A stretch of 64,000 nucleotides of DNA, from contig CAWDKY010000014.1 of the NCBI GenBank assembly GCA_963802945.1, forward strand, positions 128,001-192,000, written 5' to 3'. This DNA is from an uncultured delta proteobacterium (lineage in GTDB: Bacteria > Desulfobacterota > RBG-13-43-22). Below the pieces are notes generated by a model. It saw only the letters and a list, made by a program, of their open reading frames with translations. It was not told the DNA's origin and searched no databases. The translations under genes and the position numbers were made by a program. Positions 44,060 through 63,067 of the stretch are shown here, one piece after another. Each line of letters opens with the position of its first letter. Within the stretch, counting starts at the first letter, position 1.

Positions 44060-45061
44060 CTATACCGCCTGCAATCGTTTCTTTCCATCCGTTGAAAAAT
44101 AGATCAGCCCGTCCCTGAGTTCTCTTTGGACCAGACCCTTATTCTCCAGATAGATCAAATGGGAGATGGCTTCAGCAGTGGCAAACCATTTTTGCATGAC
44201 CGGAAAATCGTCCCAGGATTTGGCCACGATATCCCAGGTCATTTTCGAGGCCGTCCAGTAAGCGGTGAGGGTTTCCTCTTGCAGGATGGAAATCACTTCG
44301 TTGGCCCGGATACGATGATGTTCGAGCAATTCCAAAACCCGTTTTTTAAAGTCGGTAATAAAGCTCCGATGTCCGGGAAGACATAGCCGCACATCCATTT
44401 CATAGACTTTTTTCAGACTCTTGATATACAGGGCAAGAGGATCATGGTCATCGGACCAGTTTTGTATATTGGGGGTGATGTCGCCCAGCACATGGTCCCC
44501 TGAGAAAAAGATCTTTTTATCCCGCTCATACAGACAGACATGACTTAAGGTATGTCCGGGTGTGGATACCACTTCCAAGGTATAATCCCCAACTTTGAAA
44601 ATATCTCCAGCCCGGGTAACCTGATAATCCACCACGGATTCCGGTCCATACTTAAAACCGGGATGGTTCACCATGGCAGACTGGAGTTCCTCGTCGGGGA
44701 AGCCGCTCTTGGCGGCATAATCCCCCATGGGAGAACGTCGGGCATGGGGTGTAGTGCCCGCCTTTAATCGATAGGCATCGTCTTCTCCCATATAGGCCCT
44801 TGACCCATCTCTCATCAAACCGGCCACCATCCCCTGATGATCGGCGTGCAAATGGGTGATGAAAAAGTCGGTCTTTCCCAGATCCACACCGATCTCTTCA
44901 AGACCCGGCTCCAAGACCTGTTTGCAAGCAGGACGGTTCATACCCGTATCGATGACCAGGTTCCGGTCGTCTGAGGTAAGGACATATGAGTTGATTTCTT
45001 TGAGGGGGTTCCCCGGCAAGGGAACGACAATTCGGTACAATTGAGGCAAAATCTCTTCCAT
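44060..45061 (-). CDS. MBL-fold metallo-hydrolase
   Basis: IDTG, THLHADH, TPGHT, SGDH, PGH. Confidence 0.92.
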   Translation of the reverse strand: MEEILPQLYRIVVPLPGNPLKEINSYVLTSDDRNLVIDTGMNRPACKQVLEPGLEEIGVDLGKTDFFITHLHADHQGMVAGLMRDGSRAYMGEDDAYRLKAGTTPHARRSPMGDYAAKSGFPDEELQSAMVNHPGFKYGPESVVDYQVTRAGDIFKVGDYTLEVVSTPGHTLSHVCLYERDKKIFFSGDHVLGDITPNIQNWSDDHDPLALYIKSLKKVYEMDVRLCLPGHRSFITDFKKRVLELLEHHRIRANEVISILQEETLTAYWTASKMTWDIVAKSWDDFPVMQKWFATAEAISHLIYLENKGLVQRELRDGLIYFSTDGKKRLQAV

Positions 45062-45244
45062 AATCAAAAATCTCCTTTAATAGAATAGACAAATGGAATG
45101 TTAATAATCAGACCTGTTGAAACTTAGTGGGAAATGATGGCCAAAGATCGGGTTGTTGTGGGATCATTTATTTTCTCCTTGTAACACAGGTTCATGCTTT
45201 CTTTCAGGTTATGCCAGATTAAGGATTTAAGAAAGGATCTCCTT

Positions 45245-45260
45245 TGGCATGGAAAGAGCA
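45245..45260 (+). promoter_or_regulatory. Possible sigma54 promoter
   Basis: TGGCATGGAAAGAGCA has GG-N10-GC spacing; lacks the TT before GC. Confidence 0.35.
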
Positions 45261-45366
45261 TAGAATAAGCTAATGGAAGGGTCAAGGATAAAAAATCGAG
45301 TCCCTTTTTCTCCTTGATCCCTTTTTCTCCTTGCCCTATACTCTTTCCATCTTAATAAACTTTTTT

Positions 45367-46437
45367 ATGAGTATGCTGCAAGGTCGAATTGATATTCATC
45401 ACCATGTTATCCCGCCTGCCTTTTTAGAGGCGATGGCCGACAAGGGGATTAGCCAGGTAGCAGGTGCCCCCCTGCCAAGGTGGACGCCCGAAGCCTCGAT
45501 GGCGGTCATGGATATGAACGGGATTCAGACCGCAATGACCTCCATTTCTGCGCCGGGCGTGTATTTCGGAAGCGTACCGGATGCCTGTGATCTGGCACGT
45601 CGATGCAATGAATTCTCGGCGGATGTGAAGTCCCGATATCCGGGTCGCTTCGGTTCATTGGCCGTCTTACCCATGCCTTTTACTGAACAGGCCTGCAAGG
45701 AAGCCGTCTATGCCCTCGATACTCTGCTGGCAGACGGCATTGGACTGCTGGGCAGTACCGAAGGAAAGTTTCTCGGAGATCCCGCCTTTGAGGAGCTGAT
45801 GGCCGAACTGGACCGACGCCAGGCCGCCGTCTTTGTGCATCCGAACCTTCATGCTACGAGCCAGGCTATCGGGTTGAATGTGCCGGGGTTTCTGATCGAG
45901 TTTCTCTGTGATACAACACGGGCTGCGCTCAATCTGATTGTTTCCGGAACCACAGAGAAGTATCCCAATATTCGATGGATACTTGCCCATGCCGGGGGGT
46001 TTTTGCCCTACGTGGCTTGGCGGGTTTCTCTGGGAAATCTCATGCCGGAGGTCAGCCAACATGCCCCCCAGGGGATGCTGGCCTATATTAAACGCTTTTA
46101 TTTCGATACGGCCTTGTCTCCTTCTCCATACACAATGGCTGCTCTTAAGGAGCTTGTTGAGCCGTCCCACATCCTTTTCGGCAGTGATTTTCCTTTTGCC
46201 CCCGCAGCAATCTCTGCGCTTCAAGTGCAAACCTTGGATCGCTCTCCTATATGGGATGACAATACCAAATACGGGATCAACCGTGGTCATGCACTCAGTC
46301 TTTTTCCCGCCCATAAAAGGGTTGATGAGGTTGTCGCTCTACAGCCGGTCTATGGGCAGCAATCTTTCAGCGTCCGTATTATGCGGGTCTTGGTAAAACC
46401 ATTGGTCGCTGTGGCTGACCGTTTAAGGAACAAGTAA
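45367..46437 (+). CDS. Amidohydrolase_2 family protein (aromatic-acid decarboxylase-like)
   Basis: DIHHH, FVHP, AHAGGFLPY, YFDTA, FGSDFPF. Confidence 0.9.
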   Translation: MSMLQGRIDIHHHVIPPAFLEAMADKGISQVAGAPLPRWTPEASMAVMDMNGIQTAMTSISAPGVYFGSVPDACDLARRCNEFSADVKSRYPGRFGSLAVLPMPFTEQACKEAVYALDTLLADGIGLLGSTEGKFLGDPAFEELMAELDRRQAAVFVHPNLHATSQAIGLNVPGFLIEFLCDTTRAALNLIVSGTTEKYPNIRWILAHAGGFLPYVAWRVSLGNLMPEVSQHAPQGMLAYIKRFYFDTALSPSPYTMAALKELVEPSHILFGSDFPFAPAAISALQVQTLDRSPIWDDNTKYGINRGHALSLFPAHKRVDEVVALQPVYGQQSFSVRIMRVLVKPLVAVADRLRNK

Positions 46438-46559
46438 ATCGGCACTTATCATAGCGGACCGCTTATCCCGGTTAATTAAAGGGTCTTGATCCCATGAAAC
46501 GTTTCTTCTTGATCGTTATGCTTGAACTCATACGGTATCAGAAACCTTCCGTAATGAAA

Positions 46560-46640
46560 ATGAGGTTCAAGGGCTTTGGTTTTGGATGGGGGTCTCTGTT
46601 TTTCCTGCCGTAAACCCAAATGACCTAAGATAGGTTTAGT
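46560..46640 (-). pseudogene. Possible C-terminal remnant of an IS91-like transposase
   Basis: Minus strand reads ILGHLGLRQEKQRPPSKTKA, resembling the IL.HLGL...RPPP tail of IS91-family proteins (from memory, not searched). Confidence 0.35.
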
Positions 46641-46737
46641 GCTGCCGATTAGGCAAAAGACGAAGTAGAGACAAAGATGTTCATCCCTTACTTTTGGTAA
46701 AGGATGAAAAATAGGGAAGTAGCAGAATAGAGGCAAG

Positions 46738-47319
46738 TCATCTGAAAAACAGTCCAAGCGATAAGGTAACAGCATTTATGCCAATATTTTCGTGATTGAG
46801 TCCGGCATTGGAGACGTGATATAAACGGATGGCGGAGAACCACTTTGTATCTCCAATGTGATACTCGGTTCCAATACCAAGTTGAGGATTGAAGTTGATC
46901 CGCAATCCTTGACCTTCAACCTGAAAGTCGGTGTAGATAATGCCGATGCCTCCCTCTACATAGGGGTGGAAAAATTTAGTGTCGAGACACCTCAGATAGT
47001 ATAGGTGGAATATATTGGCCGAGGTTATAAGGCGTGTGTACGGCCCTGACGTTACGCCTGCTGTCAGTTCCACTTTGAATTTTAGTTGCTCCGGCGGTTT
47101 ACGGCCCCACATCTTGGGGTGATTGAACAGGCCAATGCCCGAGAGAAGGGCAAACTTGATGTCTCCCTCGGGAGTGTAAGTTGTGCCGCCTGTGATCGCG
47201 AAGCCATAGTGGCCCGGAACCGGCTGGGTCGTATTGTTGTCCTGTGCGAAACATATAGCGCACCCGAGAAACAGAAAGACAACAAGTATGACAAATGAAA
47301 GAAGGAGAATTCTATACAA
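46738..47319 (-). CDS. PagL-like lipid A deacylase / acyloxyacyl hydrolase outer-membrane barrel
   Basis: Signal peptide; PYVEGGIG, NFNPQLGIG, catalytic HVSNAG, NIGIN. Confidence 0.85.
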   Translation of the reverse strand: MYRILLLSFVILVVFLFLGCAICFAQDNNTTQPVPGHYGFAITGGTTYTPEGDIKFALLSGIGLFNHPKMWGRKPPEQLKFKVELTAGVTSGPYTRLITSANIFHLYYLRCLDTKFFHPYVEGGIGIIYTDFQVEGQGLRINFNPQLGIGTEYHIGDTKWFSAIRLYHVSNAGLNHENIGINAVTLSLGLFFR

Positions 47320-47349
47320 AGTTGAAATCGTGCCTACCAGACTAAATTG

Positions 47350-47414
47350 GTAAGAAGTTACTTTTTGATGGAAAGAATATAAAGAATATAAGGAAAGAAA
47401 AAGGCATGGTCAAG
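47350..47414 (-). promoter_or_regulatory. sigma70 promoter module, second copy
   Basis: TTGACC-17-TATATT, then AAAAAGTAACTTCTTACC; matches 3530-3585. Confidence 0.65.
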
Positions 47415-47716
47415 AAAAAAAATAACTCTTAAGGCAAGTGGACAAAGGGTGTCTTCTGAAGAAAATGGAACAAGGCAGGGCTGGCCCTTAAGAATAGCCG
47501 TTAACGATTACCATTTAAATTCTTCTCTTTTTTCAAAAAGGGTATTGCTTGGGCTGTTCGTTCGGGTCGAGAGTTTACAAGGGCCTGCTTTTTCCGAAAG
47601 TCCCCTGCTCAAAGCAAACATCTCCGTCATGGGCGGACTATATTTTTCCTGGATTTTTATGGAATCCAAAACCCTGGTCGAGGCCGACAAATAACCGCTC
47701 CTAACCATCTTATTAT

Positions 47717-48442
47717 CTAGGCACAGACCGGACATTCGGGATTTGGTTCAATCCGGACTTCTGAAAAGCGCATCTCCAACCCATTATAAACAAGAAGTCG
47801 GCCGGTAAGGAGTTTTCCAAAACCAACCAAATATTTAATGGCCTCATTGGCTTCGATCAGGCCGATAATTCCCGGGGTAGTCCCTAAGACTGGGAATTTC
47901 TGCGGCGGAGGGGCTTGAGGGAAAAGACATTTCAAACAAGGGGTCTGTCCGGGCTGGATCACGGTGATCATGCCCATCATACCAAGGATGCCTCCATAGA
48001 TAAAAGGGATCCTCTGGCGTATTATCTGTTGGTTGATCAAATACCGGGTCGGAAAATTATCCAAGCCATCCAGGACCAAATCGCACCCGTTCAGCAATTC
48101 GGGCAGGGATTCCTCGTTAATCTCTTCTTTTCGGATCTCCAGGTCAATTCTTGGATTTAGCTTGGATAGTTTTTCTTTGGCTGATTCCACTTTGGGCCTA
48201 TTGATGTCCGGTTCCCAGTGGAGGATCTGCCGGTTTAAGTTGCTGAGATCCACCTGATCCTTGTCTACAATCCGCAAGGCGCCTAGGCCGGCGGCGGTTA
48301 AATAATAGGCGGCAGCCGAACCTAGGCCACCAAGGCCGGCAATCAAGATCCGGCTTTTTTTTAATTTTTCCTGCCCTTCTTCCCCAAAATGTTTAATCAT
48401 GATTTGCCGATTATAGCGAAGGGCTTCCCGGTCATCGAGCAT
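47717..48442 (-). CDS. HesA/MoeB/ThiF family adenylyltransferase
   Basis: RYNRQI, GLGGLG, SNLNRQ, two CxxC motifs. Confidence 0.93.
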   Translation of the reverse strand: MLDDREALRYNRQIMIKHFGEEGQEKLKKSRILIAGLGGLGSAAAYYLTAAGLGALRIVDKDQVDLSNLNRQILHWEPDINRPKVESAKEKLSKLNPRIDLEIRKEEINEESLPELLNGCDLVLDGLDNFPTRYLINQQIIRQRIPFIYGGILGMMGMITVIQPGQTPCLKCLFPQAPPPQKFPVLGTTPGIIGLIEANEAIKYLVGFGKLLTGRLLVYNGLEMRFSEVRIEPNPECPVCA

Positions 48443-48783
48443 CTGGGACCTCCTTTGGGTTTTTCGTCAAGCCTATTATCTACCACTGGGAAAAATTCGG
48501 TCAATCTTTTTTATGTCTTTGTCCCAGAGGTCTTTTTCACGGCGTTCGGTCAAAAGAGATTAGTAAAAACTGTCTAACAGATTGTATTTTCTTTTGTTTT
48601 ATACAATAGATCCTGACCTATTTTCTTGTTTAAAAAAATTGTTTGACCTTTGGAGAAAAATAATCTAAGCTCCCCACTTATTTGAAGGTCCAAAGCCTTT
48701 AATCCATCCAAGGATAATCCCAAAGACTTGCAACTCGTTGGTTTTTGGTAAAAAATTATTTATCGAATAAGGAGGAAGAATCA

Positions 48784-48969
48784 ATGTTTCAAGTTACGGT
48801 TGACGCCGACAAATGTACAGGAGATTCCAACTGTGTGGATACCTGTCCGGTTAGTGTTTTTGAACTGCAGGATGAAAAGGCCGTACCCGTCAATATGGAC
48901 GAATGCCTGGGCTGCGAAAGCTGTGTCGAAGTTTGTGAAAGCGGGGCTATTACAGTAAAAGAAGTATAG
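48784..48969 (+). CDS. Dicluster ferredoxin (61 aa)
   Basis: CTGDSNCVDTCP and CLGCESCVEVC; AGGAGG RBS; TTGACC-17-TAAGCT upstream. Confidence 0.92.
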   Translation: MFQVTVDADKCTGDSNCVDTCPVSVFELQDEKAVPVNMDECLGCESCVEVCESGAITVKEV

Positions 48970-49029
48970 CCTTTCCGATCATTTTTACGTTGGGAACAGG
49001 TCAGGGAATTCCCCGGCCTGTTCTTTTTT

Positions 49030-50775
49030 ATGGACCTTTCTTCCCTAACACCATCACAAGAGCAGGCGGTCAGACATCGGGGAAGCCCCTTGATTGTTTT
49101 GGCTGGGCCCGGGACAGGGAAGACCAGAACCCTGACCCTTCGTATCGCCCACCTGATAGAATCTGGAATCACCCGCCCTGATCAAATACTGGCCATCACC
49201 TTTACCAATAAAGCCGCCGAGGAAATGAGGTCCCGGATAGAACAACTCTGTCGATCGATCGAAAGTGCTTCCCTGCCCTGGATTTCCACTTTTCACGGCT
49301 TTTGTTTCCGCTTCCTTCGGGAGCATCTTTCTACCTCTTTTCAATTATTATCTGAAAATGAGTCCTTGGTTTTTCTCAAAGAAACCGTCCGAAAACAATT
49401 CCCCGACTTCCCGACCCAGTCTTTAAAGGACTTAGCCCGGCACATCTCCTGGGCCAAGAATGCCTTGATTCTACCAGATTTACCAGAAACACTCCCCCAT
49501 TGGGATACCTATCCAAAGTGGCCTTCCTGCTATCAAGTCTTTCAGGAAAAGCTTGCTGATCACCAATTTTGGGATTTTGATGAACTCCTTATTCAAGCCG
49601 TTACCCTCATGGAAAGAAATCCCGACCTGAGGGCCGTGCTTCAAGCCCGATTCCCCCATGTATTCATTGATGAATTTCAGGATATCAACCCTTGCCAATA
49701 TCGGCTCTTTCAACTATTGACCCAAAAAAATGGGGAATGGATGGTTATTGGCGACCCCAATCAGGCTATCTACGGCTTCCGGGGGGCCAGCGCCGATTTT
49801 TTCTCCCGCCTCCGACAAGATTGTCCCTCTTCGACGGAAATTGTTCTTAGGGAGACTTTTCGGCTGAACCGGACCGTCCTGGCAGCTTCGTCTCAGGTCA
49901 TAAGGAGTTCGCCCCGGAACTTAATCTCAAACCGAAAAGGGGAGCCCTCATTTCCCGTGGTCAGTCTGTCCTCGGCCGAAGAAGAAGGGGAATACATCAC
50001 CCGGATGATAGAAGAAGAAATGGGGGGGCTGAGCCTGTCAGCCGAAGGGCCGAATTCTTTTTTTAGGCAGAACCAGCCCCGAAGTTTTGCCGATTTTGCT
50101 GTTCTTTACCGCCTTCACGCCCAAGGGGTACTGCTGGCCAAGGCCTTTTCAAAGAAGGGGATCCCCTTTAAAAAGATACAGGAAGTGCACTGGGTGGAAA
50201 GGGCGGAAATTCGCGCCTGCTTGACTTTGCTCAAGGCTTTACCCTCTTTAGAGGTTTCCCCGGCGGAAGCAATAGAAGAGGTTGTTTCGCATGAAAATCC
50301 AGAAGTTCATCCGACCACGGCCGAAGGAGCTGAAGCCTTGAAAAAGCTTCGTCTATGGGCGGCCACGTTCAAAGGTCGTCTGGGAGAATTTATTGAGGTC
50401 CTTTCGATTCAAACCGGACTGGATACCTATGAACCGGATCAGGAAACCGTTAAACTTTTGACCCTTCATGCAGCCAAAGGCTTAGAGTTTCCCATAGTCA
50501 TCATTGCCGGTTGTGAGGCTAACCTTCTTCCCCTCTCTTTGCTTAAGGAATCGGATCTGGAAGAAGAACGGCGTCTTTTTTACGTGGGCTTGACCCGAGC
50601 CAAAGAAAAAATTATTTTGACCTGGGCCAAAAAACGAACCTTATTCGGGCAGAAACTGGTCCAATCCCCCTCTCCGTTTCTAGAAAATATTGAAGCCCTC
50701 CTAAAAGATCAGATTAATATTGAAGGGACTAAGCCATCGAAGAAACCGCTTAAAAAGCAGATGTCCCTGTTTTAA
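49030..50775 (+). CDS. UvrD/PcrA-like SF1 helicase (compact form)
   Basis: AGPGTGKT, TFTNKAA, DEFQD, GDPNQAIYGFRGA, TLHAAKGLEF, EERRLFYVGLTRA. Confidence 0.93.
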   Translation: MDLSSLTPSQEQAVRHRGSPLIVLAGPGTGKTRTLTLRIAHLIESGITRPDQILAITFTNKAAEEMRSRIEQLCRSIESASLPWISTFHGFCFRFLREHLSTSFQLLSENESLVFLKETVRKQFPDFPTQSLKDLARHISWAKNALILPDLPETLPHWDTYPKWPSCYQVFQEKLADHQFWDFDELLIQAVTLMERNPDLRAVLQARFPHVFIDEFQDINPCQYRLFQLLTQKNGEWMVIGDPNQAIYGFRGASADFFSRLRQDCPSSTEIVLRETFRLNRTVLAASSQVIRSSPRNLISNRKGEPSFPVVSLSSAEEEGEYITRMIEEEMGGLSLSAEGPNSFFRQNQPRSFADFAVLYRLHAQGVLLAKAFSKKGIPFKKIQEVHWVERAEIRACLTLLKALPSLEVSPAEAIEEVVSHENPEVHPTTAEGAEALKKLRLWAATFKGRLGEFIEVLSIQTGLDTYEPDQETVKLLTLHAAKGLEFPIVIIAGCEANLLPLSLLKESDLEEERRLFYVGLTRAKEKIILTWAKKRTLFGQKLVQSPSPFLENIEALLKDQINIEGTKPSKKPLKKQMSLF

Positions 50776-50905
50776 TTGGGAGATCTCTTTTGGGTTTAAA
50801 ATTTACCGGGTTATCTTGACAAGAATCCAGCAGATGATTATCTGTTAAATAAAAGCATGTTATTTAGTAATGCCGAAGATTAAAATATAAAAAGGGGGTG
50901 TTCCT

Positions 50906-51352
50906 ATGTTTGACCTTGTGCCATGGGAAAGAACAAAAACCTTATCCAAGTTAAGAAAAGAGATGGATGATTTGTGGGGCCGTTTTTTCGGGGATGCCGG
51001 TTTTCCGATCTTCTCAGAAGCGGCCTGGGCACCGGCTTTGGATGTCAAGGAGACAAAAGAAAACATAGTGGTCACCGCTGAAATCCCGGGTTTAAATGCC
51101 AAAGAGGTGGAAGTGACCATCAGCGGTGATTTGCTGACCATCAAAGGGGAAAAGAAACAGGAAAAAGAAGAAAAGGACGAGTCCTATCACCTGATCGAAC
51201 GACGTTACGGCTCTTTTTCCCGGAGTATCCGGCTGACCACCGATGTAGATGCAAAAAATATCAAGGCCTCTCATAAAGAGGGGATCCTGACTATTACCTT
51301 GCCTAAAAGCGAGAAGGCCAAAGAAAAACAGATCAAGATTAATGTAGAATAA
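50906..51352 (+). CDS. Hsp20/alpha-crystallin small heat-shock protein
   Basis: PALDVKE, ERRYGSFSRSI, GILTITLPK. Confidence 0.95.
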   Translation: MFDLVPWERTKTLSKLRKEMDDLWGRFFGDAGFPIFSEAAWAPALDVKETKENIVVTAEIPGLNAKEVEVTISGDLLTIKGEKKQEKEEKDESYHLIERRYGSFSRSIRLTTDVDAKNIKASHKEGILTITLPKSEKAKEKQIKINVE

Positions 51353-51369
51353 GATCCGAACAATAACCG

Positions 51370-51411
51370 AAAAAGAAAAGGCCGTATCATCCGATACGGC
51401 CTTTTCTTTTT
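51370..51411 (+). terminator. Intrinsic terminator after Hsp20
   Basis: AAAAGAAAAGGCCGTATC-ATCC-GATACGGCCTTTTCTTTT. Confidence 0.88.
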
Positions 51412-51526
51412 AAACCCTATTGCCCGTTTGGGGTGGGTACCACGAAACATGAAAATTTTTATAAGGATTCAAGGGGTCAATGGATTGAAAGGTTCAATTT
51501 TAAACCTATCCTCATTGTTTTTTTTC

Positions 51527-51556
51527 TTGACAAAGGGGTACTTCTTCCATTAAATT
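51527..51556 (+). promoter_or_regulatory. Putative sigma70 promoter of the aro operon leader
   Basis: TTGACA at 51527, 18-nt spacer, TAAATT. Confidence 0.55.
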
Positions 51557-51589
51557 ATTTACTATTGAGAGGTAAGTAGGGCGAAATTG

Positions 51590-51676
51590 ATGGAAAAAAG
51601 ACTTTATAGCTATAATTTTTGGTATTATTTTTATTATTACTTTCCACCGGTCTGCCCATCGCTTTGGAGGACTTAA
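51590..51676 (+). CDS. Aromatic amino acid attenuator leader peptide MEKRLYSYNFWYYFYYYFPPVCPSLWRT
   Basis: 28 codons: 7 Tyr, 3 Phe, 2 Trp; nine consecutive aromatic codons; directly upstream of a terminator and the aro operon. Confidence 0.88.
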   Translation: MEKRLYSYNFWYYFYYYFPPVCPSLWRT

Positions 51677-51746
51677 AGAAACTTAAAAAGAAAATAAATC
51701 AAAAAAAGCCATGGGGAGACGGAAAGATGCTCCTCATGGCTTTTTT
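51650..51746 (+). terminator. Attenuator: alternative antiterminator (51650-51665 with 51705-51720) and terminator (51708-51746)
   Basis: Terminator GCCATGGGGAG/CTCCTCATGGC followed by U6; GTCTGCCCATCGCTTT pairs 14/16 with AAAGCCATGGGGAGAC. Confidence 0.85.
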
Positions 51747-51811
51747 GTTTTTACAGCATAGGATAGCCGGGAGCAACAACGTCGACCCAGGTCGTTTGAA
51801 AGGAGTTAATC

Positions 51812-52840
51812 ATGGTGATCGTGATGAAAAAACATGCCACGGGAGAAGAAATTGAAAATGTTATTAAATGGATTGAATCCGTAGGATACCAGACCCATCC
51901 CTCTCGAGGTGTGGAACAAACCATTATCGGGGTGGTTGGAGACGACCGGGGTAAGGCCCAATTAAAATCCGTAGAGTATCTTCCCGGAGTGGAAAAGGTC
52001 GTTCCTATCTTGAAACCCTATAAACTCGCCAGCCGGGAGGGCAGACCGGGGGATACGATCGTTCAGGTCGGTAATGTTGAAATCGGCGGCCCGGAATTTA
52101 TTGTCATGGCCGGCCCCTGCTCCATTGAAAGCGACGAACAACTGATGGAAAGCGCTTACATCATAAAAAAGGGTGGCGCCCACATCTTAAGAGGCGGGGC
52201 TTACAAGCCCAGGACCTCTCCCTATAGCTTCCAGGGGCTGGAAGAAGAGGGGCTTAAGATGTTGAAAAAGGTCCGCGATAAAATGAATATCCCGGTGATC
52301 ACCGAGGTCATGAACACCACGGAGGTTGAGTTGGTTGAAGAAAACAGCGACATCCTGCAGATCGGGACCCGGAACGTCCAAAATTTTCCTCTCTTGAAAA
52401 AAGTCGGCCAATCCAGAAAGCCGGTCCTTTTAAAAAGAGGCATGATGACCACGATTGAAGAGCTTCTGATGTCTGCTGAATATATTCTTGCCGCCGGGAA
52501 CGATCAGGTCATCCTTTGCGAGCGAGGCATCCGAACCTTTGAAACCGCCACCCGTAACACCCTGGATTTGAGCGCCGTCCCGGTCTTAAAGGAACTGACC
52601 CACCTACCGGTTATCGTCGATCCCAGCCACGCCACCGGCCATTGGAAATACGTCCTTCCCTTATCCCGGGCCGCCTTGGCCGTGGGAGCCGATGGATTGC
52701 TCATCGAAGTCCATCCCCAGCCGGAAAAGGCCCTCTGTGACGGTCCGCAGTCCCTGAAACCGGAAAAATTTTATCAACTGATGGATGAATTAAGGATGTT
52801 GCAGGGGGTTTTAAGAAAAGGAACAGGTGCTTTGCAATGA
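51812..52840 (+). CDS. aroF: DAHP synthase type I-beta with N-terminal regulatory domain
   Basis: [39 protein letters not shown]; Thermotoga-like N-terminal domain. Confidence 0.93.
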
Positions 52841-53933
52841 ATCAGATCAGGGTTAATTTAGACGCCCAAACCCCAACCCATTATAAAATCTATATTGGTC
52901 GGGATATTATAGATCGAATAGGGGTTATTTTAAATAAAGGGGACTGGATCAACCGTTATGTCATTATCACCGATTCCCAGGTGAAAACCATTCACGGGAA
53001 AAGGGTGTTGGATACCTTAAGAAAGATGGATCTCAATGTAGATATGATCGATTTTTCTGCCGGGGAGAGTTCAAAAAACATACAAACTTCCCTTCAGTTG
53101 GTGGACAGCCTGATCGCCCTGGGGGCGGACAGACATTCCGGCCCTGATCGCCTTGGGAGGAGGAGTGGTTGGGGATATAACCGGGTTCATTGCCTCTATC
53201 TTATATGAGGGGCCTTCCTTTTTTTCAGATGCCAACCACCCTTCTGGCCCAGGTGGACAGCAGTATCGGAGGCAAGACCGGGATTGACCTTCCGGTCGGA
53301 AAAAATCTCCTGGGGACTTTCTATCAGCCCCAGGCGGTTTTTATCGACCTGACCTTTCTCCAAACCCTGACGGACCTGGAATTCAATAACGGCCTTCCGG
53401 AAATCCTGAAATATGGGATTATTGAAGATCCAGAACTCTTACGGACCTTGGAGGATAATACAGAAGCCATCAGGGCCCGGGATTTTTCTCTGATGGAAAG
53501 GATAATTTCCAAATCCTGCCGGATCAAAAAAAGGATCGTGGAAATGGATGAGAAAGAAGGCGGACTCCGCCGCATTCTTAACTTCGGCCATACTATCGGT
53601 CATGCCGTGGAAGCGGAATCGGGTTATTCCCTCTCTCACGGGCAAGCCGTGGCCATCGGCATGGTCTGTGCCGCCTTCTTGTCTGAGAAATTAAACTATT
53701 TATCTTCCAAAGAACGGGAGCGGATCGAGTCCCTGGTCAAGGCCTTCGGTCTGCCTTACCGTATCCCCAAAGAACTGAAAACAAAAGCCCTGCTTGACAG
53801 GATGATGAGAGACAAGAAAAAAGAGGGGGCCATTCTCCCTTTTGTGCTGCTGAAAAAAATCGGACTCCCTTTTATCAATGGAGGGGTTTCCGAGAAAAAA
53901 ATTCAGGAAACGATTGAGGCCCTGAAAGCATGA
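52837..53933 (+). CDS. aroB: 3-dehydroquinate synthase, two apparent +1 frameshifts (~53137, ~53200)
   Basis: GESSK; middle frame LIALGGGVVGDITGFIAS; then MRG..PTTLLAQVDSSIGGKTG, LNFGHTIGHAVE, HGQAVAIG. Confidence 0.92.
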
Positions 53934-55009
53934 AAAAAAATTCGATAAAAAAATTAAGAGACGACTTAAGAAAAAAAGATCAGGAAATTGTAACCCTCCT
54001 TAACGAACGAGCCGAACTGGCCCTTAAAGTGGGCCGAATTAAAAATGAGAACGGCCAGGAAATCTATGATCCTTCCCGGGAGAGCCTGGTTTATCAGCAT
54101 TTATCTCAGATCAGCCAAGGGCCTCTACCCGTAAAGGCCCTGCAGGACATTTACCGGGAGATTGTCTCGGCCTCCCGTGCCCTGCAAGGACCCATCACTG
54201 TGGATTATTTTGGTCCGGAAGCCTCTTTCACCCACTTGGCCGCTTTGGCCCATTTCGGCCGATCAGCGCAGCTTATACCGCAAACCACTATCCCCATGGT
54301 CTTTGAACAAGTCGAAAGGGGTAGGAGTTCTTACGGTGTGGTACCCATTGAGAATTCCGGAGAGGGATCGGTTAAACCGACCCTTGATTGTTTGCTTACA
54401 ACGCCGCTTTCCATCCGGGCCGAGGTTTTTTTAAGGATCTCCCATTATCTTCTGGCCTCCCCCAAAAAGATGAAAAACATCAAAAGAATTTATTCCCATC
54501 CCCAGGCCCTGGCTCAGTGCCAGGTCTGGTTGGAGAGGAACTTTCCTCGGCGGCCTTTATTAAAAGTGGAGAATACGGCCGAGGCGGCCAAAAAGGTTTT
54601 GGAGGACAGGGAGGGAGCGGCCATAGGCAGCCTGCAGGCCGCTGAGTTGTACGGACTTCAAATCCTGGCCGACAGGATTGAGGATTACCCTTTAAACACC
54701 ACCCGATTTCTTATTATAGGAAAAGGTCGAAGTGAACCTTCCGGAATTGATAAAACTTCTATCCTCTTTGGAACCACCCACGTTCCGGGGGCTTTGCTTC
54801 ACGCCCTAGAACCCTTTGCCCGGGAAGGACTGAATCTGCTCAGGATCGAGTCCTATCCCTGGCCGAATCGGATGTGGGAATATTTATTCTTCGTGGATTT
54901 TGCCGGGCATCAAGAGGACGAGAATGTCCAACGCTGTTTGAAAGAGACCGGGAAGGTCACCAATTTTCTCAAGGTCATGGGGTCTTATCCCTGGGGAGAA
55001 ACACCGTGA
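53930..55009 (+). CDS. pheA: Chorismate mutase/prephenate dehydratase
   Basis: CM domain (LLNERA, YDPSRE), VVPIENS, SHPQALAQC, NTTRF, ACT domain. Confidence 0.95.
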   Translation: MKKNSIKKLRDDLRKKDQEIVTLLNERAELALKVGRIKNENGQEIYDPSRESLVYQHLSQISQGPLPVKALQDIYREIVSASRALQGPITVDYFGPEASFTHLAALAHFGRSAQLIPQTTIPMVFEQVERGRSSYGVVPIENSGEGSVKPTLDCLLTTPLSIRAEVFLRISHYLLASPKKMKNIKRIYSHPQALAQCQVWLERNFPRRPLLKVENTAEAAKKVLEDREGAAIGSLQAAELYGLQILADRIEDYPLNTTRFLIIGKGRSEPSGIDKTSILFGTTHVPGALLHALEPFAREGLNLLRIESYPWPNRMWEYLFFVDFAGHQEDENVQRCLKETGKVTNFLKVMGSYPWGETP

Positions 55010-55695
55010 GGATCTGCATTCCCATCACCGCTGCTACTACCCAGGAAGCCCTGACCAAAATGAAAAAAGGGTTTGCTCTGGCCAAAATGTTGGAATTGAG
55101 AATTGATGGAATCCCAAAAGTTGATTTAAAGAAATTGTTGGCCGAAAAAAAGGGAGAAATTCTGATAACCAACCGGGTCAGGGAAGAGGGAGGGGCCTTT
55201 GTCGGCGGAGAACAAAAAAGGGTGGCCCTCTTAAAAAAGGCCGTGGCCTTGGGCTGCGATTATGTAGACCTGGAGATCAGGACAGAACAGGCCTTAATTC
55301 TTGAACTGAAGAAAAAAATCGCCGGCCATCGCAGGCGCACCCGGTTGATCCTTTCTTATCATAATCAGGAAAGGACCCCAGGGATGAATATCTTAAGAAA
55401 AAAAATAATTGAAGGGTATAAGTCCGGAGCAGATATCCTCAAGATCGTTACTTTTGCCAAAAAGATGGAGGACAATCTCAAGGTCCTTGGCCTCATTCCC
55501 TATGCTCAAAAAAAAGGTTTGAAGATCATAGCCTTCTGCCTGGGAGAAAAAGGAAAGATCAGCCGGATCATGGCTCCAATGCTGGGTTCTTATCTGACCT
55601 ATGCCTCTTTGGAGAAAGGGGAAGAATCAGCTCCGGGACAAATGACGGTTGAAGAAATCAAGCGGGTATTAAGGATGTTGGGAGAAAAGAAATAG
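55006..55695 (+). CDS. aroD: Type I 3-dehydroquinate dehydratase
   Basis: GTG start overlapping the pheA stop; LELRID, EEGG, LSYH, SRI, APGQ. Confidence 0.92.
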   Translation: MRICIPITAATTQEALTKMKKGFALAKMLELRIDGIPKVDLKKLLAEKKGEILITNRVREEGGAFVGGEQKRVALLKKAVALGCDYVDLEIRTEQALILELKKKIAGHRRRTRLILSYHNQERTPGMNILRKKIIEGYKSGADILKIVTFAKKMEDNLKVLGLIPYAQKKGLKIIAFCLGEKGKISRIMAPMLGSYLTYASLEKGEESAPGQMTVEEIKRVLRMLGEKK

Positions 55696-55721
55696 GCTTA
55701 ATAAAATATTTGAAATAAAAT

Positions 55722-56103
55722 TGTTACGGGTTGCAGGTTAGATAATCGTGTCTTTTGGCCGTCAACTAGAACCAATGCCATTAACTTAAGGGAAACTTTA
55801 TATCCAAATCGTCACCCCGGCGAAAGCCGGGGTCCAGAAAAGCTAATAAAAGCTGGATTCCGGCTTCCGAGACTGTGTCGCAATTATATTTTTGTCATTC
55901 CGTGCAAGCGAAGCGCGACACGGAATCCAGTATTTTCATTAAGTTCTGGATGCCGGCTTTCGCCGGCATGACGGCTTTGACGGCTCTGTCCGCTATTACG
56001 ACACAGTCTCTCCGCCGGAATGACTCCAAGAGTTCCAAACCAGAGCAATAAAGTTTAAGTTAACAGTATTGACCCGTAACTCGTAACCCCAAACCCGTAA
56101 CCA
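55722..56103. repeat. Nested repeat complex: heptamer arms > outer IR > REP > MITE family 2
   Basis: GTTACGGGTTGCAGG...ACCCGTAACTCGTAAC outside; AATGCCATTAACTTA/TAAGTTAACAGTATT; REP GTCACCCCGGCGAAAGCCGGGGTCCAG...CTGGATTCCGGC..GCCGGAATGAC. Confidence 0.75.
55869..56010 (+). mobile_element. MITE family 2, copy 1 (142 bp)
   Basis: TIR GAGACTGTGTCGCAAT/ATTACGACACAGTCTC; 3-bp duplication TCC; nearly identical to 58272-58412. Confidence 0.9.
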
Positions 56104-56117
56104 GAAATTTATAAGTC

Positions 56118-56936
56118 ATGCCGACATCGGACATAAAAATCTTTGCTGTTTTTGGAAACCCGGTCGCCCATAGCTTGTCACCGCTGATGCACCAGGCGGC
56201 TTTCAACCGGATGGGTCTCAAGGCCCAATATGTCCCATTTTGTGTGAAAGACATAGGGAAGGCCGTGGATGGGATCCGGGGTCTGGATATTCAGGGGGTG
56301 AGTGTCACCCTGCCGTTTAAAACCGAAGTCATAGATTTTTTAGATGAGGTCGAAGAAGATGCCCGCCGGATCGGGGCGGTCAATACGATTAAAAATAGTC
56401 GGGGGAGACTTATAGGATACAACACCGACTGGAAAGGATTTGTCCTTTCATTGAAAGAAGGCCTGGAAATCAGGGGAAAACAATTTGCCGTCATTGGGGC
56501 CGGAGGTGCGGCCAGGGGGATTGTTTATGGCCTGATAAAGGAAGGTGGATATCCGATTATCCTGAACCGAACCCTTTCCAAAGCAAAGGCCCTGGGGAAG
56601 AAATTCGGGTGTCCTTTTCTGCCGTTTTCCGAAAAAGAAAAGATCAAGGCGGACTGTCTGATCAATACCACCTCACTGGGGATGGTTCCAAACAAAGAGA
56701 AGTCACCTTTCCCCAAGAAGTTTCTTAAAAAATTTCCATGGGTCGTGGATATCATTTATAATCCTTTAAAGACAAAACTCCTCAAGGGAGCCGAGGAAGC
56801 GGGATGCCGGACCATATCCGGTGTGGGAATGTTCGTGCATCAGGGAGCGGAACAAATAAAAATCTGGACCGGTCAGGAACCCCCCAGGGCCTATATGAAA
56901 AAAGTTGTTCTGGCTAAACTCGAAGAAAATGATTGA
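56118..56936 (+). CDS. aroE: Shikimate dehydrogenase
   Basis: GNPVAHSLSP, SVTLPFK, GAVNT, NTD, GAGGAARG. Confidence 0.96.
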   Translation: MPTSDIKIFAVFGNPVAHSLSPLMHQAAFNRMGLKAQYVPFCVKDIGKAVDGIRGLDIQGVSVTLPFKTEVIDFLDEVEEDARRIGAVNTIKNSRGRLIGYNTDWKGFVLSLKEGLEIRGKQFAVIGAGGAARGIVYGLIKEGGYPIILNRTLSKAKALGKKFGCPFLPFSEKEKIKADCLINTTSLGMVPNKEKSPFPKKFLKKFPWVVDIIYNPLKTKLLKGAEEAGCRTISGVGMFVHQGAEQIKIWTGQEPPRAYMKKVVLAKLEEND

Positions 56937-58191
56937 GATAAAGCCCATAACTCAGCTCAATGCCCGGGTAACCATGCCTGGTTCAAAAAGCTACACCCAA
57001 AGGGCAATGATCATGGCCGCCCTGGCCGAAGGGGGCTCTTGTTTGCAAGGGCCGCTTTTTTCTGAAGATACCGGATATCTGACCGAAGCCCTCCGTCTGC
57101 TGGGCGCAGGGATTCAGGTCCATAATGGTGCAATGTTAGTGCAGGGAACAGCAGGATGGATCAGCAATCCCAAAAAAGAAATCTATCTGGGAAACAACGG
57201 CACAGCCATGCGCTTACTGACCACCGTGGTCTGCCTTGGGAAAGGGGAATTTTTTCTCACCGGCGCCCCCCGTCTTTTGGAAAGACCGGTTCAGCCTTTA
57301 CTTACCGCCCTGAAAACTCTGGGGGTGGAGGCCCGAAGTGAAGGCAGGGAAGGGTTTCCGCCGGTTGTCATCCGGGCCGATGGTCTTCAGGGGGGGAAGA
57401 TCCAACTCCGTAATATTGAAAGCAGTCAATATGTCTCCTCCCTTTTGATTTCCGCCCCATTGGCCAGAGAAGACTTTTCCCTTGAACTTCAGGGTTCAAT
57501 ACCTTCTATGCCTTATGTGGAAATGACAGCGGCTTTGATGAAACAATTTGGCGTGGAGGTCGAAAGACCCTCATCAGCCCGGTTTTTAATAAAAGCCCGG
57601 CAAAAATATCAGGGCATTACCTGCCGGATTGAAGGAGATGTTTCGGGCGCCTCTTACTTTTTTTTGGCTGCTGCTCTGTGCCAGGGGAGGGTAAGAGTGG
57701 AGCCGATCATTCCCAACACCCTCCAAGGCGACATTGGTTTTTTAAAGATTTTGGAGGAACTCGGCTGCGAGGTTATCCGAGGCGATCATTGGGTGGAGGT
57801 TACAGGAGGAAAACTGGTATCAGGAGAAATCATCTTTGACTTTGGTGATATGCCGGATGTGGTTCCAACCTTGGCTGTCCTGGCCGCCTGCCGTCCGGGT
57901 AGAACGATTATTAAAAATGTCGCCCATCTCAGAATAAAAGAAAGCAATCGTCTGGAAGCCCTGGTCAGGGAATTGACTAAGACCGGGATCAAGGCCGAAG
58001 AGACAGAAGACGGTCTCAGGATAGAAGGGGGCAGGCCTCATGGGGCGGAGATTGAAACCTATAACGATCACCGGATAGCCATGAGCTTTGCCATCCTGGG
58101 TTTGGCTGTGCCGGGCATTAAAATCAAAGATCCGGACTGTGTTAAAAAATCCTTTCCAGGATTTTGGGGAGAATTGAAAAAACTGTATTAA
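56929..58191 (+). CDS. aroA: EPSP synthase
   Basis: PGSKS, NGTAMR, SSQYVS, RIKESNR, DHRIAM, KSFP. Confidence 0.97.
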   Translation: MIEIKPITQLNARVTMPGSKSYTQRAMIMAALAEGGSCLQGPLFSEDTGYLTEALRLLGAGIQVHNGAMLVQGTAGWISNPKKEIYLGNNGTAMRLLTTVVCLGKGEFFLTGAPRLLERPVQPLLTALKTLGVEARSEGREGFPPVVIRADGLQGGKIQLRNIESSQYVSSLLISAPLAREDFSLELQGSIPSMPYVEMTAALMKQFGVEVERPSSARFLIKARQKYQGITCRIEGDVSGASYFFLAAALCQGRVRVEPIIPNTLQGDIGFLKILEELGCEVIRGDHWVEVTGGKLVSGEIIFDFGDMPDVVPTLAVLAACRPGRTIIKNVAHLRIKESNRLEALVRELTKTGIKAEETEDGLRIEGGRPHGAEIETYNDHRIAMSFAILGLAVPGIKIKDPDCVKKSFPGFWGELKKLY

Positions 58192-58271
58192 ATCCTCATG
58201 CCCGCTTTCGCTGGAGTCAATGGAAAATGAACATATTGATTTATCATGTAATAAGGTGTCATTCCGGCGAA

Positions 58272-58412
58272 GAGACTGTGTCGCAATTATATTTTTGTCA
58301 TTCCGTGCAAGCGAAGCGCGACACGGAATCCAGTATTTTATTAAGTTCTGGATGCCGGCTTTCGCCGGCATGACGGCTTTGATGGCGCTGTCCGCTATTA
58401 CGACACAGTCTC
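58272..58412 (+). mobile_element. MITE family 2, copy 2 (141 bp), inside a REP hairpin
   Basis: Same TIRs; 3-bp duplication GAA; host REP GTCATTCCGGCGAA|AGCCGGAATCCAG. Confidence 0.9.
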
Positions 58413-58531
58413 GAAAGCCGGAATCCAGGTAACTTATATCATCAAATGCCCTGGATGCCGGATCAAGTCCGGCATGACGTTGAAAAGACCACACCAAGGC
58501 ATAGGTGGGTGCTATTATCGCAATAAAAACC

Positions 58532-59053
58532 ATGCATATTTTCTTAATAGGATATCGCGGTAGCGGAAAAACCTCGGTGGGCAGGAAGCTGGCTGAAAAA
58601 CTAAAGGCCCCTTTTTATGACACCGATCAAATGATCATAGACCGTATGGGTAAAACGATCAAACAATGGGTGGAGGAAAAAGGATGGGAATCCTTTCGCC
58701 AGGAAGAAAAGGCCATCATCCAGGAGATCTCTTCTTTGGATTGCGCTGTAATTGCCCTGGGTGGGGGTGCGGTGATGGACCCTGAAAACAGGGAAGTATT
58801 AAAACAAAAGGGTCTGATCGTTTGGCTGAGCGCCGATGTCCAAACCATCATGGAAAGGATGAAATCCGACCCTGCGAATGAGGACAATCGTCCCGCCCTT
58901 TCCGCCAAGGATTGGGAGACTGAAATCCAAGAACTGCTGGCACAACGCATACCGGTTTATCAGCGATGGGCTGATTTTTCCGTAGACACGGATGGAAAGA
59001 ATATTGAGGGGATTGCTGAAGAGATTTGTAATCATATCCAACAAGCCCAATGA
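58532..59053 (+). CDS. aroK: Shikimate kinase
   Basis: GYRGSGKT, DTD, FRQEE, LGGG, RPAL. Confidence 0.95.
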   Translation: MHIFLIGYRGSGKTSVGRKLAEKLKAPFYDTDQMIIDRMGKTIKQWVEEKGWESFRQEEKAIIQEISSLDCAVIALGGGAVMDPENREVLKQKGLIVWLSADVQTIMERMKSDPANEDNRPALSAKDWETEIQELLAQRIPVYQRWADFSVDTDGKNIEGIAEEICNHIQQAQ

Positions 59054-59104
59054 ACCCAATGAACTCAATGAACCAAAAAAACCAAACAGAACATTGGAGA
59101 CGCT

Positions 59105-60160
59105 ATGTCCGGTAATTCAACAGGTGTTTTATTTAAAGTTACGACTTGGGGAGAATCTCATGGACCGGCGACAGGTGCGGTCATAGAGGGCTGCCCGCCT
59201 TTGATCCCTTTGACTGAACAAGACATCCAGAAAGACTTAAGCAGAAGAAAACCCGGACGAATGGCAACCGCTTCTTCAAGGAAAGAGGAAGACCGGATAG
59301 AAATCCTTTCCGGTGTCTTCGAAGGCCGGACCACCGGGACCCCCATTGCCCTGCTCATCCGCAATAAAGATGCGGACAGCTCGGCCTATGATGCCCTTAA
59401 AGAGGTTTTTCGCCCAGGTCATGGGGATATTACTTATTTAAAAAAATACGGGATCAGGGATCACCGGGGAGGCGGCCGCTCTTCAGGAAGGGAAACCGCA
59501 GCCCGCGTGGCCGCCGGGGCCGTTGCCAAAAAAGTGCTTGCCAGGGAAGGTATAAAGGTTATTGCCTATACCTTGGAATTGGGCGGCATCCGGGCCGAGG
59601 TCATTAACCTGGGTGCAATTTCCAAAAACAACCTCTTTTGTCCTGATCCTGAGGCGGCTTTAAAGATGGAAAAAAAGTTACGGGCGATTGCCGAGAAAGG
59701 GGATACCCTCGGAGGGATTGTGGAGATCATGGTCCGGGGATGTCCTGCGGGCCTAGGGGAGCCGGTCTTTGACAAGATGGATGCCGATCTGGCCAAGGCC
59801 TTGATGAGCATCGGATCAATCAAAGGGGTGGAAATCGGTGCCGGATTTGAAGCGGCCCGGATGACCGGTTCTGTTTGTAACGACGCCATAACACCTAAAG
59901 GGTTCTTGACCAATAATGCCGGCGGCATTCTGGCCGGTATCACCAACGGCGATGACCTGATTATCCGGGCGGCCTGCAAGCCCATCTCTTCCATCAGGAA
60001 AGAACAAAAAACCGTCGATCTTTCGGGGAAGCCGGTTGCTTTATCGATCAAAGGCAGACATGATGCATCGGTCATCCCACGGATCATTCCGGTCTGTGAG
60101 GCCATGGTCAGCCTGGTCTTGGCCGATCATCTGTTAAGACAGAAGGCGATTTCTAAATGA
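59105..60160 (+). CDS. aroC: Chorismate synthase
   Basis: TWGESHG, RPGHGD, RGGGRSSGRETA, GRHD. Confidence 0.98.
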   Translation: MSGNSTGVLFKVTTWGESHGPATGAVIEGCPPLIPLTEQDIQKDLSRRKPGRMATASSRKEEDRIEILSGVFEGRTTGTPIALLIRNKDADSSAYDALKEVFRPGHGDITYLKKYGIRDHRGGGRSSGRETAARVAAGAVAKKVLAREGIKVIAYTLELGGIRAEVINLGAISKNNLFCPDPEAALKMEKKLRAIAEKGDTLGGIVEIMVRGCPAGLGEPVFDKMDADLAKALMSIGSIKGVEIGAGFEAARMTGSVCNDAITPKGFLTNNAGGILAGITNGDDLIIRAACKPISSIRKEQKTVDLSGKPVALSIKGRHDASVIPRIIPVCEAMVSLVLADHLLRQKAISK

Positions 60161-60930: not shown

Positions 60931-61001
60931 ACTCTTTGGCCCGATGGATTTTACCGTATCCTTCCTTAAAATCCATGCCCAAAAATGTAATTTAGAATTA
61001 A

Positions 61002-61150
61002 CAGGATGAGGAAAAACATTTTTAAAAGGTTGCTCAAAAAGGTTTAGATACAAGGCGCCCGAAACCCCGAGGAATGAGTCGTACATAAAAGTACGTCGCA
61101 ATGACGAGGGATGAGGGCAACAAAGTAGATAGACCTTTTTCAGCAACCTG
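61002..61150 (-). mobile_element. MITE family 1, copy 3 (inverted)
   Basis: Reverse complement of copies 1 and 2; TTAA on both sides. Confidence 0.85.
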
Positions 61151-61167
61151 TTAAAGGATAAAAAAAC

Positions 61168-62196: not shown

Positions 62197-62314
62197 TATC
62201 ACCTGATTTTCCCTCGCCCTGCCAGGTTATACAATCGGCCTTTCCCTTCCCCCCATGTGGTTTGACATTACCCTTCAAACTTAGCCTTTGGCCCGACGCT
62301 TTTTGACACTTGTC

Positions 62315-62866: not shown

Positions 62867-63067
62867 TCTTTATCCTCCCTCTTTATTGACTCTTTGGATG
62901 GTTATCCAATTCGTGGTGACCCAGGGGTCGGGCCTGAAACCCAAAAGTACGAAAAACGCCCTTTTTATCCCCCAAAAACTCATTATAGGCCCTTTTTAGA
63001 GGGCTCAGACGATAGTATTCCCTGCTAGATTAATCAGCTCCCGTGGGCCGACCCCATCCCTACTTGG

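Follow-up and report, generated by a model that had tools for sequence, protein, structure and literature searches.

We describe here a leader region that lies directly upstream of aroF in a 64,000-nt stretch of DNA from an uncultured delta-proteobacterium (the window; positions 128,001 to 192,000 of contig CAWDKY010000014.1, assembly GCA_963802945.1), and which is very probably a transcription attenuator of the trpL/pheL kind, worked by a ribosome translating a leader peptide, that gates aroF and, putatively, the cluster of aromatic amino acid biosynthesis genes behind it. This reading draws on (i) conservation of the leader among relatives, (ii) covariation within its two competing helices, (iii) the geometry of the short open reading frame (ORF) relative to those helices, and (iv) a parallel Trp leader encoded elsewhere in the same genome. 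It thus upholds a preliminary description of the region, which had claimed trpL/pheL-type geometry and an attenuator before aroF, and it would assign a function to a 285-nt intergenic region that otherwise appears "empty", as well as to an unannotated 28-codon gene.

Organization of the leader

The preliminary description had pointed to a 28-residue ORF with nine aromatic codons in a row. Translation confirms this: the product, MEKRLYSYNFWYYFYYYFPPVCPSLWRT, contains 7 Tyr, 3 Phe, and 2 Trp (12 of 28 residues, versus a combined Tyr, Phe, and Trp share of 9.1% in the genome's long ORFs), with codons 10-18 (51617-51643) forming the unbroken aromatic run (Table 1). When the intergenic region was shuffled 5000 times, no 10-residue window reached nine aromatic residues, the maximum being seven. 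Six-frame translation of the 4.37-Mb metagenome-assembled genome (MAG) that contains the window recovered 178 stop-to-stop frames with at least 7 aromatic residues in 10, and 6 frames with 9 in 10; these aromatic-rich frames are mostly Phe runs arising from T-rich DNA. As such frames are not rare genome-wide, the run alone is unconvincing, and the weight of the argument rests on conservation.

A sigma-70-like promoter with 10 of 12 consensus matches in a consensus scan precedes the ORF. Its -35 box and the T-run before it are kept in 11 of 12 loci of the genus, i.e., those reached by a 420-nt upstream cut, and the DNA located 5' of the promoter is unrelated between the genus loci.

Competing structures and proposed mechanism

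Folding bears out the 11-bp terminator with U6 that had been described at 51708-51746. Positions 51708-51718 pair with 51730-51740 through 11 base pairs, one of them G-U, followed by T6 G T5 (51741-51752), and the resulting hairpin is the dominant feature of the centroid fold of 51560-51760 (-26.4 kcal/mol with an A/U extension; -19.1 kcal/mol for the core). Equally borne out is the claim that a distal segment of the leader ORF (segment A) can pair at 14 of 16 positions with a segment (B) that contains the 5' arm of the terminator, a degree of complementarity reached in 0 of 20,000 shuffles of the leader region. The A:B antiterminator and the terminator, formed by B with segment C, are mutually exclusive.

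Both conformers were folded, as the preliminary description had proposed. RNA ending at 51722 folds into A:B at -21.0 kcal/mol (A:B alone, -19.1 kcal/mol). With the ORF masked to 51688, representing a ribosome at the stop codon, the terminator alone forms; with a mask ending at 51641, representing a ribosome stalled at approximately codon 13, A:B forms in RNA not yet extended into the 3' arm of the terminator. The full-length RNA favors the terminator over A:B, so the choice between the two must be kinetic, as in other attenuators. Across 80 aligned leaders (see below), the median distance between the last aromatic codon and A is 6 nt, that between A and the stop codon 9 nt, and that between the stop codon and B 21 nt. 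The ribosome footprint sizes applied to spacing and masking are assumed values.

In the mechanism that we propose from this arrangement, transcription would start approximately 25 nt before the leader ATG, as judged from the promoter-like site, and a ribosome would translate the leader. Were charged Tyr-, Phe-, and Trp-tRNA plentiful, this ribosome would pass the aromatic codons and cover A en route to the stop codon at 51674; B would then pair with C, the terminator would form, and RNA polymerase would halt at the U-tract. Were an aromatic aminoacyl-tRNA scarce, the ribosome would stall within codons 6-17, its front edge before A, leaving A free to pair with B once the latter had been made (-19 to -21 kcal/mol); no terminator would form and transcription would enter aroF. 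The masked folds and the spacing, with the footprint assumed, agree with the original suggestion that stalling frees the antiterminator and that a ribosome at the stop codon blocks it. Judging from codon content, it is plausible that all three amino acids (Tyr, Phe, and Trp) are sensed. A separate idea, that AGGAGG or rare Arg codons before the leader stop act as a ribosome-holding site, was set aside: AGGAGG occurs in 28 of the 80 leaders, and AGG accounts for 16% of Arg codons.

Conservation and covariation among aroF leaders

Inspection of short ORFs upstream of aroF in related genomes had been put forward as a check on the attenuator, as had covariation of its stems, and both now speak for it. 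At all 12 loci of the genus (AroF 85-100% identical), an ORF of 27-31 codons with a conserved, in-frame ATG is present and has 7-10 aromatic residues per ten. Between these leaders, Phe and Tyr replace each other and their codons switch synonymously, and Trp is kept in 11 of 12. A wider sample, drawn from the species collection, consisted of the best 80 of 312 AroF relatives in named MAGs of Syntrophaceae, Smithellaceae, and Syntrophales; nine of the 80 belong to the window's genus. An aromatic leader ORF (at least six aromatic residues per ten) precedes aroF at 79 of these 80 loci; at the one locus without it (L066), the contig extends just 235 nt upstream. We aligned the window's leader with those of the other 79 loci (alignment A1: 80 leaders, L066 omitted, 79 distinct rows). 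At least three Tyr are found in 77 of the 80 leaders, at least two Phe in 74, and at least one Trp in 72; the order of the three residues and the synonymous codons vary, and the aromatic run persists.

The RNA segments are conserved in a different manner. Within the genus, the A strand is invariant, third codon positions included, and the distal leader peptide varies among the relatives (VCPSL, VCLSL, VCLLL, VCPAL) with pairing ability retained; constraint therefore acts on the RNA and not on the peptide. Leaders in two other genera of the family resemble MISLQSQQDFYYFYYWPGTRLLMD, and in these both A and B differ from the window's with their pairing kept.

Among the 79 distinct sequences, 95.9% of cells in the terminator helix are paired, with changes on both sides at 4 of its 11 pairs, and at 77 of the 80 loci the terminator stem has 9 or more pairs and is followed by 5 or more T within 8 nt. 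When this helix is taken together with the second terminator helix of the relatives (see below), 93.1% of cells are paired, versus 28.6-51.7% with slid partners, and there are 130 double-change cells versus 42.4 in shuffles, none of 500 shuffles being as high. The A:B antiterminator behaves alike in the same 79 sequences: 90.9% of cells are paired, versus 29.9-44.7% with slid partners, both-side changes affect 5 of 15 pairs, and 30 double-change cells compare with 9.4 in shuffles (0 of 500 as high). At alignment columns 42/97, for instance, the pair is U-A in 38 sequences, C-G in 12, and G-C in 8. Since related sequences can beat all shuffles even without a structure, we regard the slid controls and such compensatory pairs as the better evidence.

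Table 1. Positions of the leader elements, the downstream cluster, and other features (window coordinates unless a contig is given).
Feature	Position	Strand	Details
Sigma-70-like promoter	51527-51556	+	-35 TTGACA 51527-51532; 18-nt spacer; -10 TAAATT 51551-51556; preceded by a T-run
Leader ORF	51590-51676	+	ATG 51590; 28 codons; TAA 51674-51676; translation MEKRLYSYNFWYYFYYYFPPVCPSLWRT
Putative regulatory codons	51605-51643	+	Tyr 6, 8, 12, 13, 15, 16, 17; Phe 10, 14, 18; Trp 11
Segment A	51650-51665	+	Antiterminator 5' strand; within leader codons 21-26
Segment B	51705-51720	+	Antiterminator 3' strand; doubles as terminator 5' arm (51708-51718)
Segment C	51730-51752	+	Terminator 3' arm (51730-51740) and U-tract (51741-51752)
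Downstream cluster	51812-62196	+	aroF (I-beta DAHP synthase), aroB (split), pheA (CM-PDT), aroD, aroE, aroA, aroK, aroC, tyrA, aroG-type I-alpha DAHP synthase
hsp18	50906-51352		Hsp18/Hsp20-type gene; upstream neighbor
Two-way terminator after hsp18	51370-51411		
Trp leader ORF of the same genome	C34:84770-84844		Within C34:84700-85046, outside the window; translation MNQNLTSNKNWWWWQDSREGFVHR

A wider family of homologous switches

The window's genome encodes a second switch of matching design. A Trp leader ORF on another contig, MNQNLTSNKNWWWWQDSREGFVHR, contains WWWW, is preceded by a TTGACA/TATAAT promoter, and is followed by two tandem terminators; behind it lies a gene for a 718-residue fused anthranilate synthase, TrpE(G) (NF010081, 1034.7 bits versus a cut-off of 645). 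By reading, the likeness to the aro leader extends down to a C-C mismatch in A:B. In a genome-wide scan for further combinations of a leader ORF and a terminator, only the aro and trp candidates were convincing, with three Leu/Ile candidates having no biosynthetic gene behind them. The second I-beta DAHP synthase gene of the genome (C15:374480) has no leader, its upstream sequence holding at most 3 aromatic residues per 10.

To follow the element further, we used a covariance model of the distal ORF and terminator (R1; 115 positions). It finds one site in the window's genome, at 115.5 bits. Of the 14 genomes that represent the genus, 13 have a match of 95 bits or more, and the other (G010, 85% complete) reaches only 33.7 bits. 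The class, order, and family of the window are represented in the genome collection by the same 21 genomes of four genera. Two sister genera gave weaker matches in all six of their genomes, and the fourth genus, with one genome (89% complete), gave no match to R1. At each of the five sister-genus sites read, we recognized an aromatic leader, segments A and B, and a terminator. Where scanned, these leaders stand before aroK (four sites), which is followed by aroC at the three with the next ORF scanned and by a DAHP synthase gene at two.

In an even sample of the phylum, R1 matched 63 of 151 genomes and 41 of 110 genera (E of at most 0.001), among which the weak matches may include false ones. 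We read 48 phylum sites, comprising a first batch of 8 and then 40 taken by score down to approximately 39 bits, with the window's genus omitted. Each of the first eight sites combines an aromatic leader with two terminators; six precede AroF-like ORFs (by eye, from N-termini similar to that of the window's AroF) and two precede a 264-residue ORF, which at L126 is an ADH synthase (NCBIfam, 408.4 bits versus a cut-off of 241). Of the further 40 sites, 37 have an ORF in which five or more residues per ten are aromatic. The next ORF was scanned with Pfam at 38 of the 40, there being none in the fetched piece at the other two, and was assigned to DAHP_synth_1 (10), the DeoC-family aldolases (15), shikimate kinase (2), Peripla_BP_6 (2), POR_N (3), the anthranilate synthase N-domain (1), FmdE (1), or no family (4).

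The codon run of the leader differs with the gene that follows. The two leaders before periplasmic binding proteins are Phe-only (6 Phe, 0-1 Tyr, and no Trp), those before trpE (1) and the POR_N proteins (3) carry Trp runs (3-4 Trp), and those before DAHP synthase (10), DeoC-family aldolase (15), and aroK (2) are mixtures of Tyr and Phe, often with Trp. That the run is tuned to the downstream gene is our strongest reason for holding that the codons themselves are read, and it suggests that the Phe-, Trp-, and mixed-leader loci may constitute an aromatic regulon built from one RNA chassis. Runs of Leu codons at L130, L132, L139, and L149 had been entertained as "leucine leaders" and were rejected, as they are Tyr codons read out of frame; at these loci, the aromatic frame is present and a DAHP synthase or DeoC aldolase gene lies downstream.

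Individual loci with gene-matched Phe-only, Trp-only, or mixed leaders are L137, L153, L145, L148, L169, L154, L126, and L127. Mixed leaders also precede ADH synthase, the alternative entry to dehydroquinate.

The switches form a large family, each with a mechanism of a known type; Rfam, as searched, does not contain this family among its curated entries. A cmscan of positions 45000-64000 at E values up to 1 placed nothing from Rfam (Trp_leader, Phe_leader, T-box, etc.) on the leader; a chance match to a microRNA (23.5 bits, minus strand), which covers the terminator, was the only overlap. The family is structured enough for a covariance model, and could thus enter a curated collection and serve annotation; its paralogues, through their codon composition, would also provide a natural series for asking how leader codons set amino-acid specificity.

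A second terminator in related lineages

At 69 of 70 loci that do not belong to the window's genus (L040-L110, A1 columns 159-194), the first terminator is directly followed by another hairpin with its own U-tract. Its stem covaries, with both-side changes at 7 of 11 pairs, and the base of this stem resembles that of the first terminator. Within the window's genus, none of 10 loci has a remnant with at least 8 pairs or a U-tract, and RNAalifold detects no conserved hairpin there; the genus has lost the second terminator.

It is possible that in the relatives one leader opens both terminators through a relay, in which the 3' arm of the first terminator would pair with the 5' arm of the second (C:D). 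The switch would then adopt A:B plus C:D when on, and B:C plus D:E when off. C:D is 91.5% paired, a value reached by 396 of 500 shuffles, and has a single double-change cell, so it shows no covariation beyond shuffles; its core is a conserved palindrome, for which the covariation test has little power. Taken as a whole, the notion of a phylum-wide, modular "aromatic attenuon", with the codon run swapped per gene, a five-segment relay in most lineages, and the second lock lost in the window's genus, is one we advance tentatively and would presently rate as rather doubtful. Its modular re-use part, i.e., one homologous switch before several gene types, has largely been seen in the loci described above. 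The tandem-terminator form presents a testable design question.

Transcript evidence

In the sequencing runs considered, the share of sampled words found was at most 0.26, and all of the material consists of contigs and not reads. Two metatranscriptome runs from one study each provided a single contig of a close relative, which over 122 nt differs from the window by 1 letter and 1 gap. Both RNA contigs carry the aromatic run of the leader upstream; one ends at 51752, and the other aligns to 51753 and continues for six further letters. Contigs of two DNA runs cross 51752/51753. The ends of the RNA contigs are at most a weak hint of terminated leader RNA. The RNA contigs do not cover 51774-52215, a gap in coverage that is uninformative.

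Weighing the attenuator against other explanations

Several observations count against a leader-peptide attenuator before aroF. The Shine-Dalgarno sequence of the leader is weak and, by eye, is not kept across the genus. The compared sequences are related, for which shuffle controls overstate the case. A ribosome stalled at codons 17-18 would, with the footprint assumed, already cover the first bases of A. The Phe-Tyr-Phe leader of Corynebacterium answered to Phe only, meaning that the presence of a codon does not prove that its amino acid is sensed. The RNA hint derives from one study and from contigs, and cannot prove a 3' end. Lastly, the weaker 1:2 hairpin (51642-51669) of the preliminary description is not upheld: a weak local hairpin at approximately 51642-51680 is seen in the single-sequence fold, but in the alignment of relatives the proposed pairing reaches 69.1%, versus 66.2% with partners slid by one column, and thus has no comparative support. 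The switch therefore looks three-segmented, and its untranslated leader would default to read-through, unlike trpL. Such a hairpin is not universal among leader-peptide attenuators, and we do not treat its absence as excluding membership.

Could the A/B/C switch instead be run by another signal, e.g., a TRAP-like RNA-binding protein, a small ligand, or a TnaC-like nascent-peptide arrest responding to a free amino acid, with the aromatic codons being secondary? The most conserved parts are indeed the distal ORF and the terminator arm and not the aromatic run, the leader ribosome-binding site is weak, and the 1:2 hairpin is lacking; we nevertheless find such a signal unlikely, as the chassis is constant and the codon runs track the gene (Trp with trpE, Phe with transport proteins, Tyr-Phe with DAHP synthase), the distal peptide varies with base pairs retained, and the Rfam search at E values up to 1 placed no riboswitch or T-box on the leader. 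The terminator might also be constitutive, serving a small independent transcript (a small RNA or small-protein gene) or insulating an aroF that has its own promoter, without any switch. RNA contigs with the leader that end at the U-tract would fit a stable short transcript, and trans-acting attenuator RNAs are known in Sinorhizobium (PMC6614838). This is very unlikely all the same: hsp18 upstream already has its own bidirectional terminator, no promoter-like site is found on the + strand between 51616 and 52077, and the A:B helix, for which a plain terminator has no need, is conserved and covaries.

We attach a similarly slight probability to the leader acting mainly on aroF translation, via coupling or masking of the ribosome-binding site, and not on transcription. 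What invites this explanation is a GACCC-type motif (51780-51800) that lies downstream of the terminator, 16-20 nt ahead of the Shine-Dalgarno sequence of aroF, and is conserved at all 10 loci of the genus. Its pairing with GGAG in RNAalifold is weak, with almost no energy (-1.39 kcal/mol) and compensatory change at 0 of 5 pairs, however, and the leader stop codon, at 135 nt before the aroF start, is too far away for coupling; moreover, a strong U-tract terminator stands between the leader and aroF. That the ORF and its complementarity are mere chance products of AT-rich intergenic DNA is scarcely credible. Although the genome does contain those 178 frames with at least 7 aromatic residues in 10, neither the 5000 shuffles of the run nor the 20,000 shuffles of the pairing reach the observed values, and conservation of the element in approximately 90 loci, with flanking DNA not conserved, refutes this explanation.

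Downstream cluster and genomic surroundings

The preliminary description had the attenuator gate the common pathway together with pheA and tyrA. The genes do lie in order on the + strand, and gene order suggests that the ten-gene cluster may be co-transcribed; set against this, two gaps contain repeats and aroB is split. All of the cluster genes score above their NCBIfam curated cut-offs except aroB, whose larger piece reaches 301.1 versus 305 and whose other piece falls far below. Genome G005, from the same genus, shows this gene order with aroB intact. Compared with that 364-residue gene, aroB of the window (52837-53933) is divided into two ORFs by single-base insertions at 53140 and 53200, which could reflect either a fault in the assembly or a genuine pseudogene; were the split real, the pathway would operate without this copy of 3-dehydroquinate synthase. 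The gaps between aroD and aroE (55695-56118) and between aroA and aroK (58191-58505) each contain one copy of a repeat of approximately 150 nt with 12-nt inverted ends, and measure 422 and 313 nt in the window versus 114 and 203 nt in G005. A scan of the window revealed no terminator-like sites on the + strand in these gaps. The repeat itself resembles a miniature transposable element.

Upstream, the region of the hsp18 terminator (51347-51440) produced sub-threshold Thr_leader matches on both strands (38.7 and 34.8 bits versus a gathering score of 55). Both reflect a chance resemblance to a hairpin that has A- and T-runs.

With respect to lineage, AroF relatives at 73-80% identity belong to Syntrophaceae, Smithellaceae, Syntrophales, and Syntrophus aciditrophicus, and closer ones to MAGs of Thermodesulfobacteriota/Deltaproteobacteria. 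In sister genera of the window's own family (G014-G020), AroF has 57-59% identity and lacks the N-terminal domain, and the operon opens with leader-aroK-aroC. The window's AroF and leader are nearer to those of Syntrophales MAGs than to those of these sister genera. There are hints in these identities that the operon head may have been laterally transferred or replaced.

Relation to known attenuators

In the trpL, pheL, and pheM leaders of Escherichia coli, a four-segment anatomy includes a 1:2 hairpin that gives termination without translation. The window's element resembles these leaders in having a short ORF of end-product codons, a terminator, an overlapping antiterminator, and a proposed decision by ribosome position; it differs in that no 1:2 hairpin is conserved, and in that each E. 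coli leader carries the codons of one amino acid and gates a terminal branch or a synthetase. The corresponding attenuators (trpL-trpEDCBA, pheL-pheA, and pheM-pheST) are named in PMC11802643. A screen in Shewanella lists aroF under an "attenuator sensing tyr-tRNA", citing 1980 work in E. coli (PMC2659441). The literature as covered describes no such leader for Syntrophales or other delta-proteobacterial lineages, though this coverage leaves aside subscription papers and so is not proof of absence; similarly, the available portions of PMC4833913, PMC1262725, PMC2965389, and PMC545781 make no mention of an aromatic or aroF leader in delta-proteobacteria. Our findings indicate that uncultured syntrophic and sulfate-reducing lineages (Thermodesulfobacteriota) may control aromatic synthesis mainly by ribosome-sensed RNA switches and not by TyrR/TrpR-type repressors or T-boxes. 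Nothing here overturns current understanding.

The nearest counterpart is the aroR-aroF attenuator of Corynebacterium glutamicum, which was reportedly the subject of a study by Neshat et al. (2014, J Biotechnol 190:55). Its leader, earlier predicted (PMC4046766), has been tested, contains Phe-Tyr-Phe, and is induced by limitation for Phe but not for Tyr (PMC11802643). With this tested precedent, the element is less unusual relative to classic leaders than the preliminary description had held. The likeness is a functional one: in both cases a Phe/Tyr leader peptide lies directly upstream of a DAHP synthase gene, and stalling raises transcription, or is here proposed to. By virtue of this position, aroR and the window's leader would control entry to the common pathway and not a terminal branch. 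The two differ in that the window's leader, from a different phylum, has 12 aromatic residues among 28, including 7 Tyr, where aroR has Phe-Tyr-Phe only, and in that the window's operon, unlike the C. glutamicum aroF case, also includes pheA, tyrA, and a second DAHP synthase gene.

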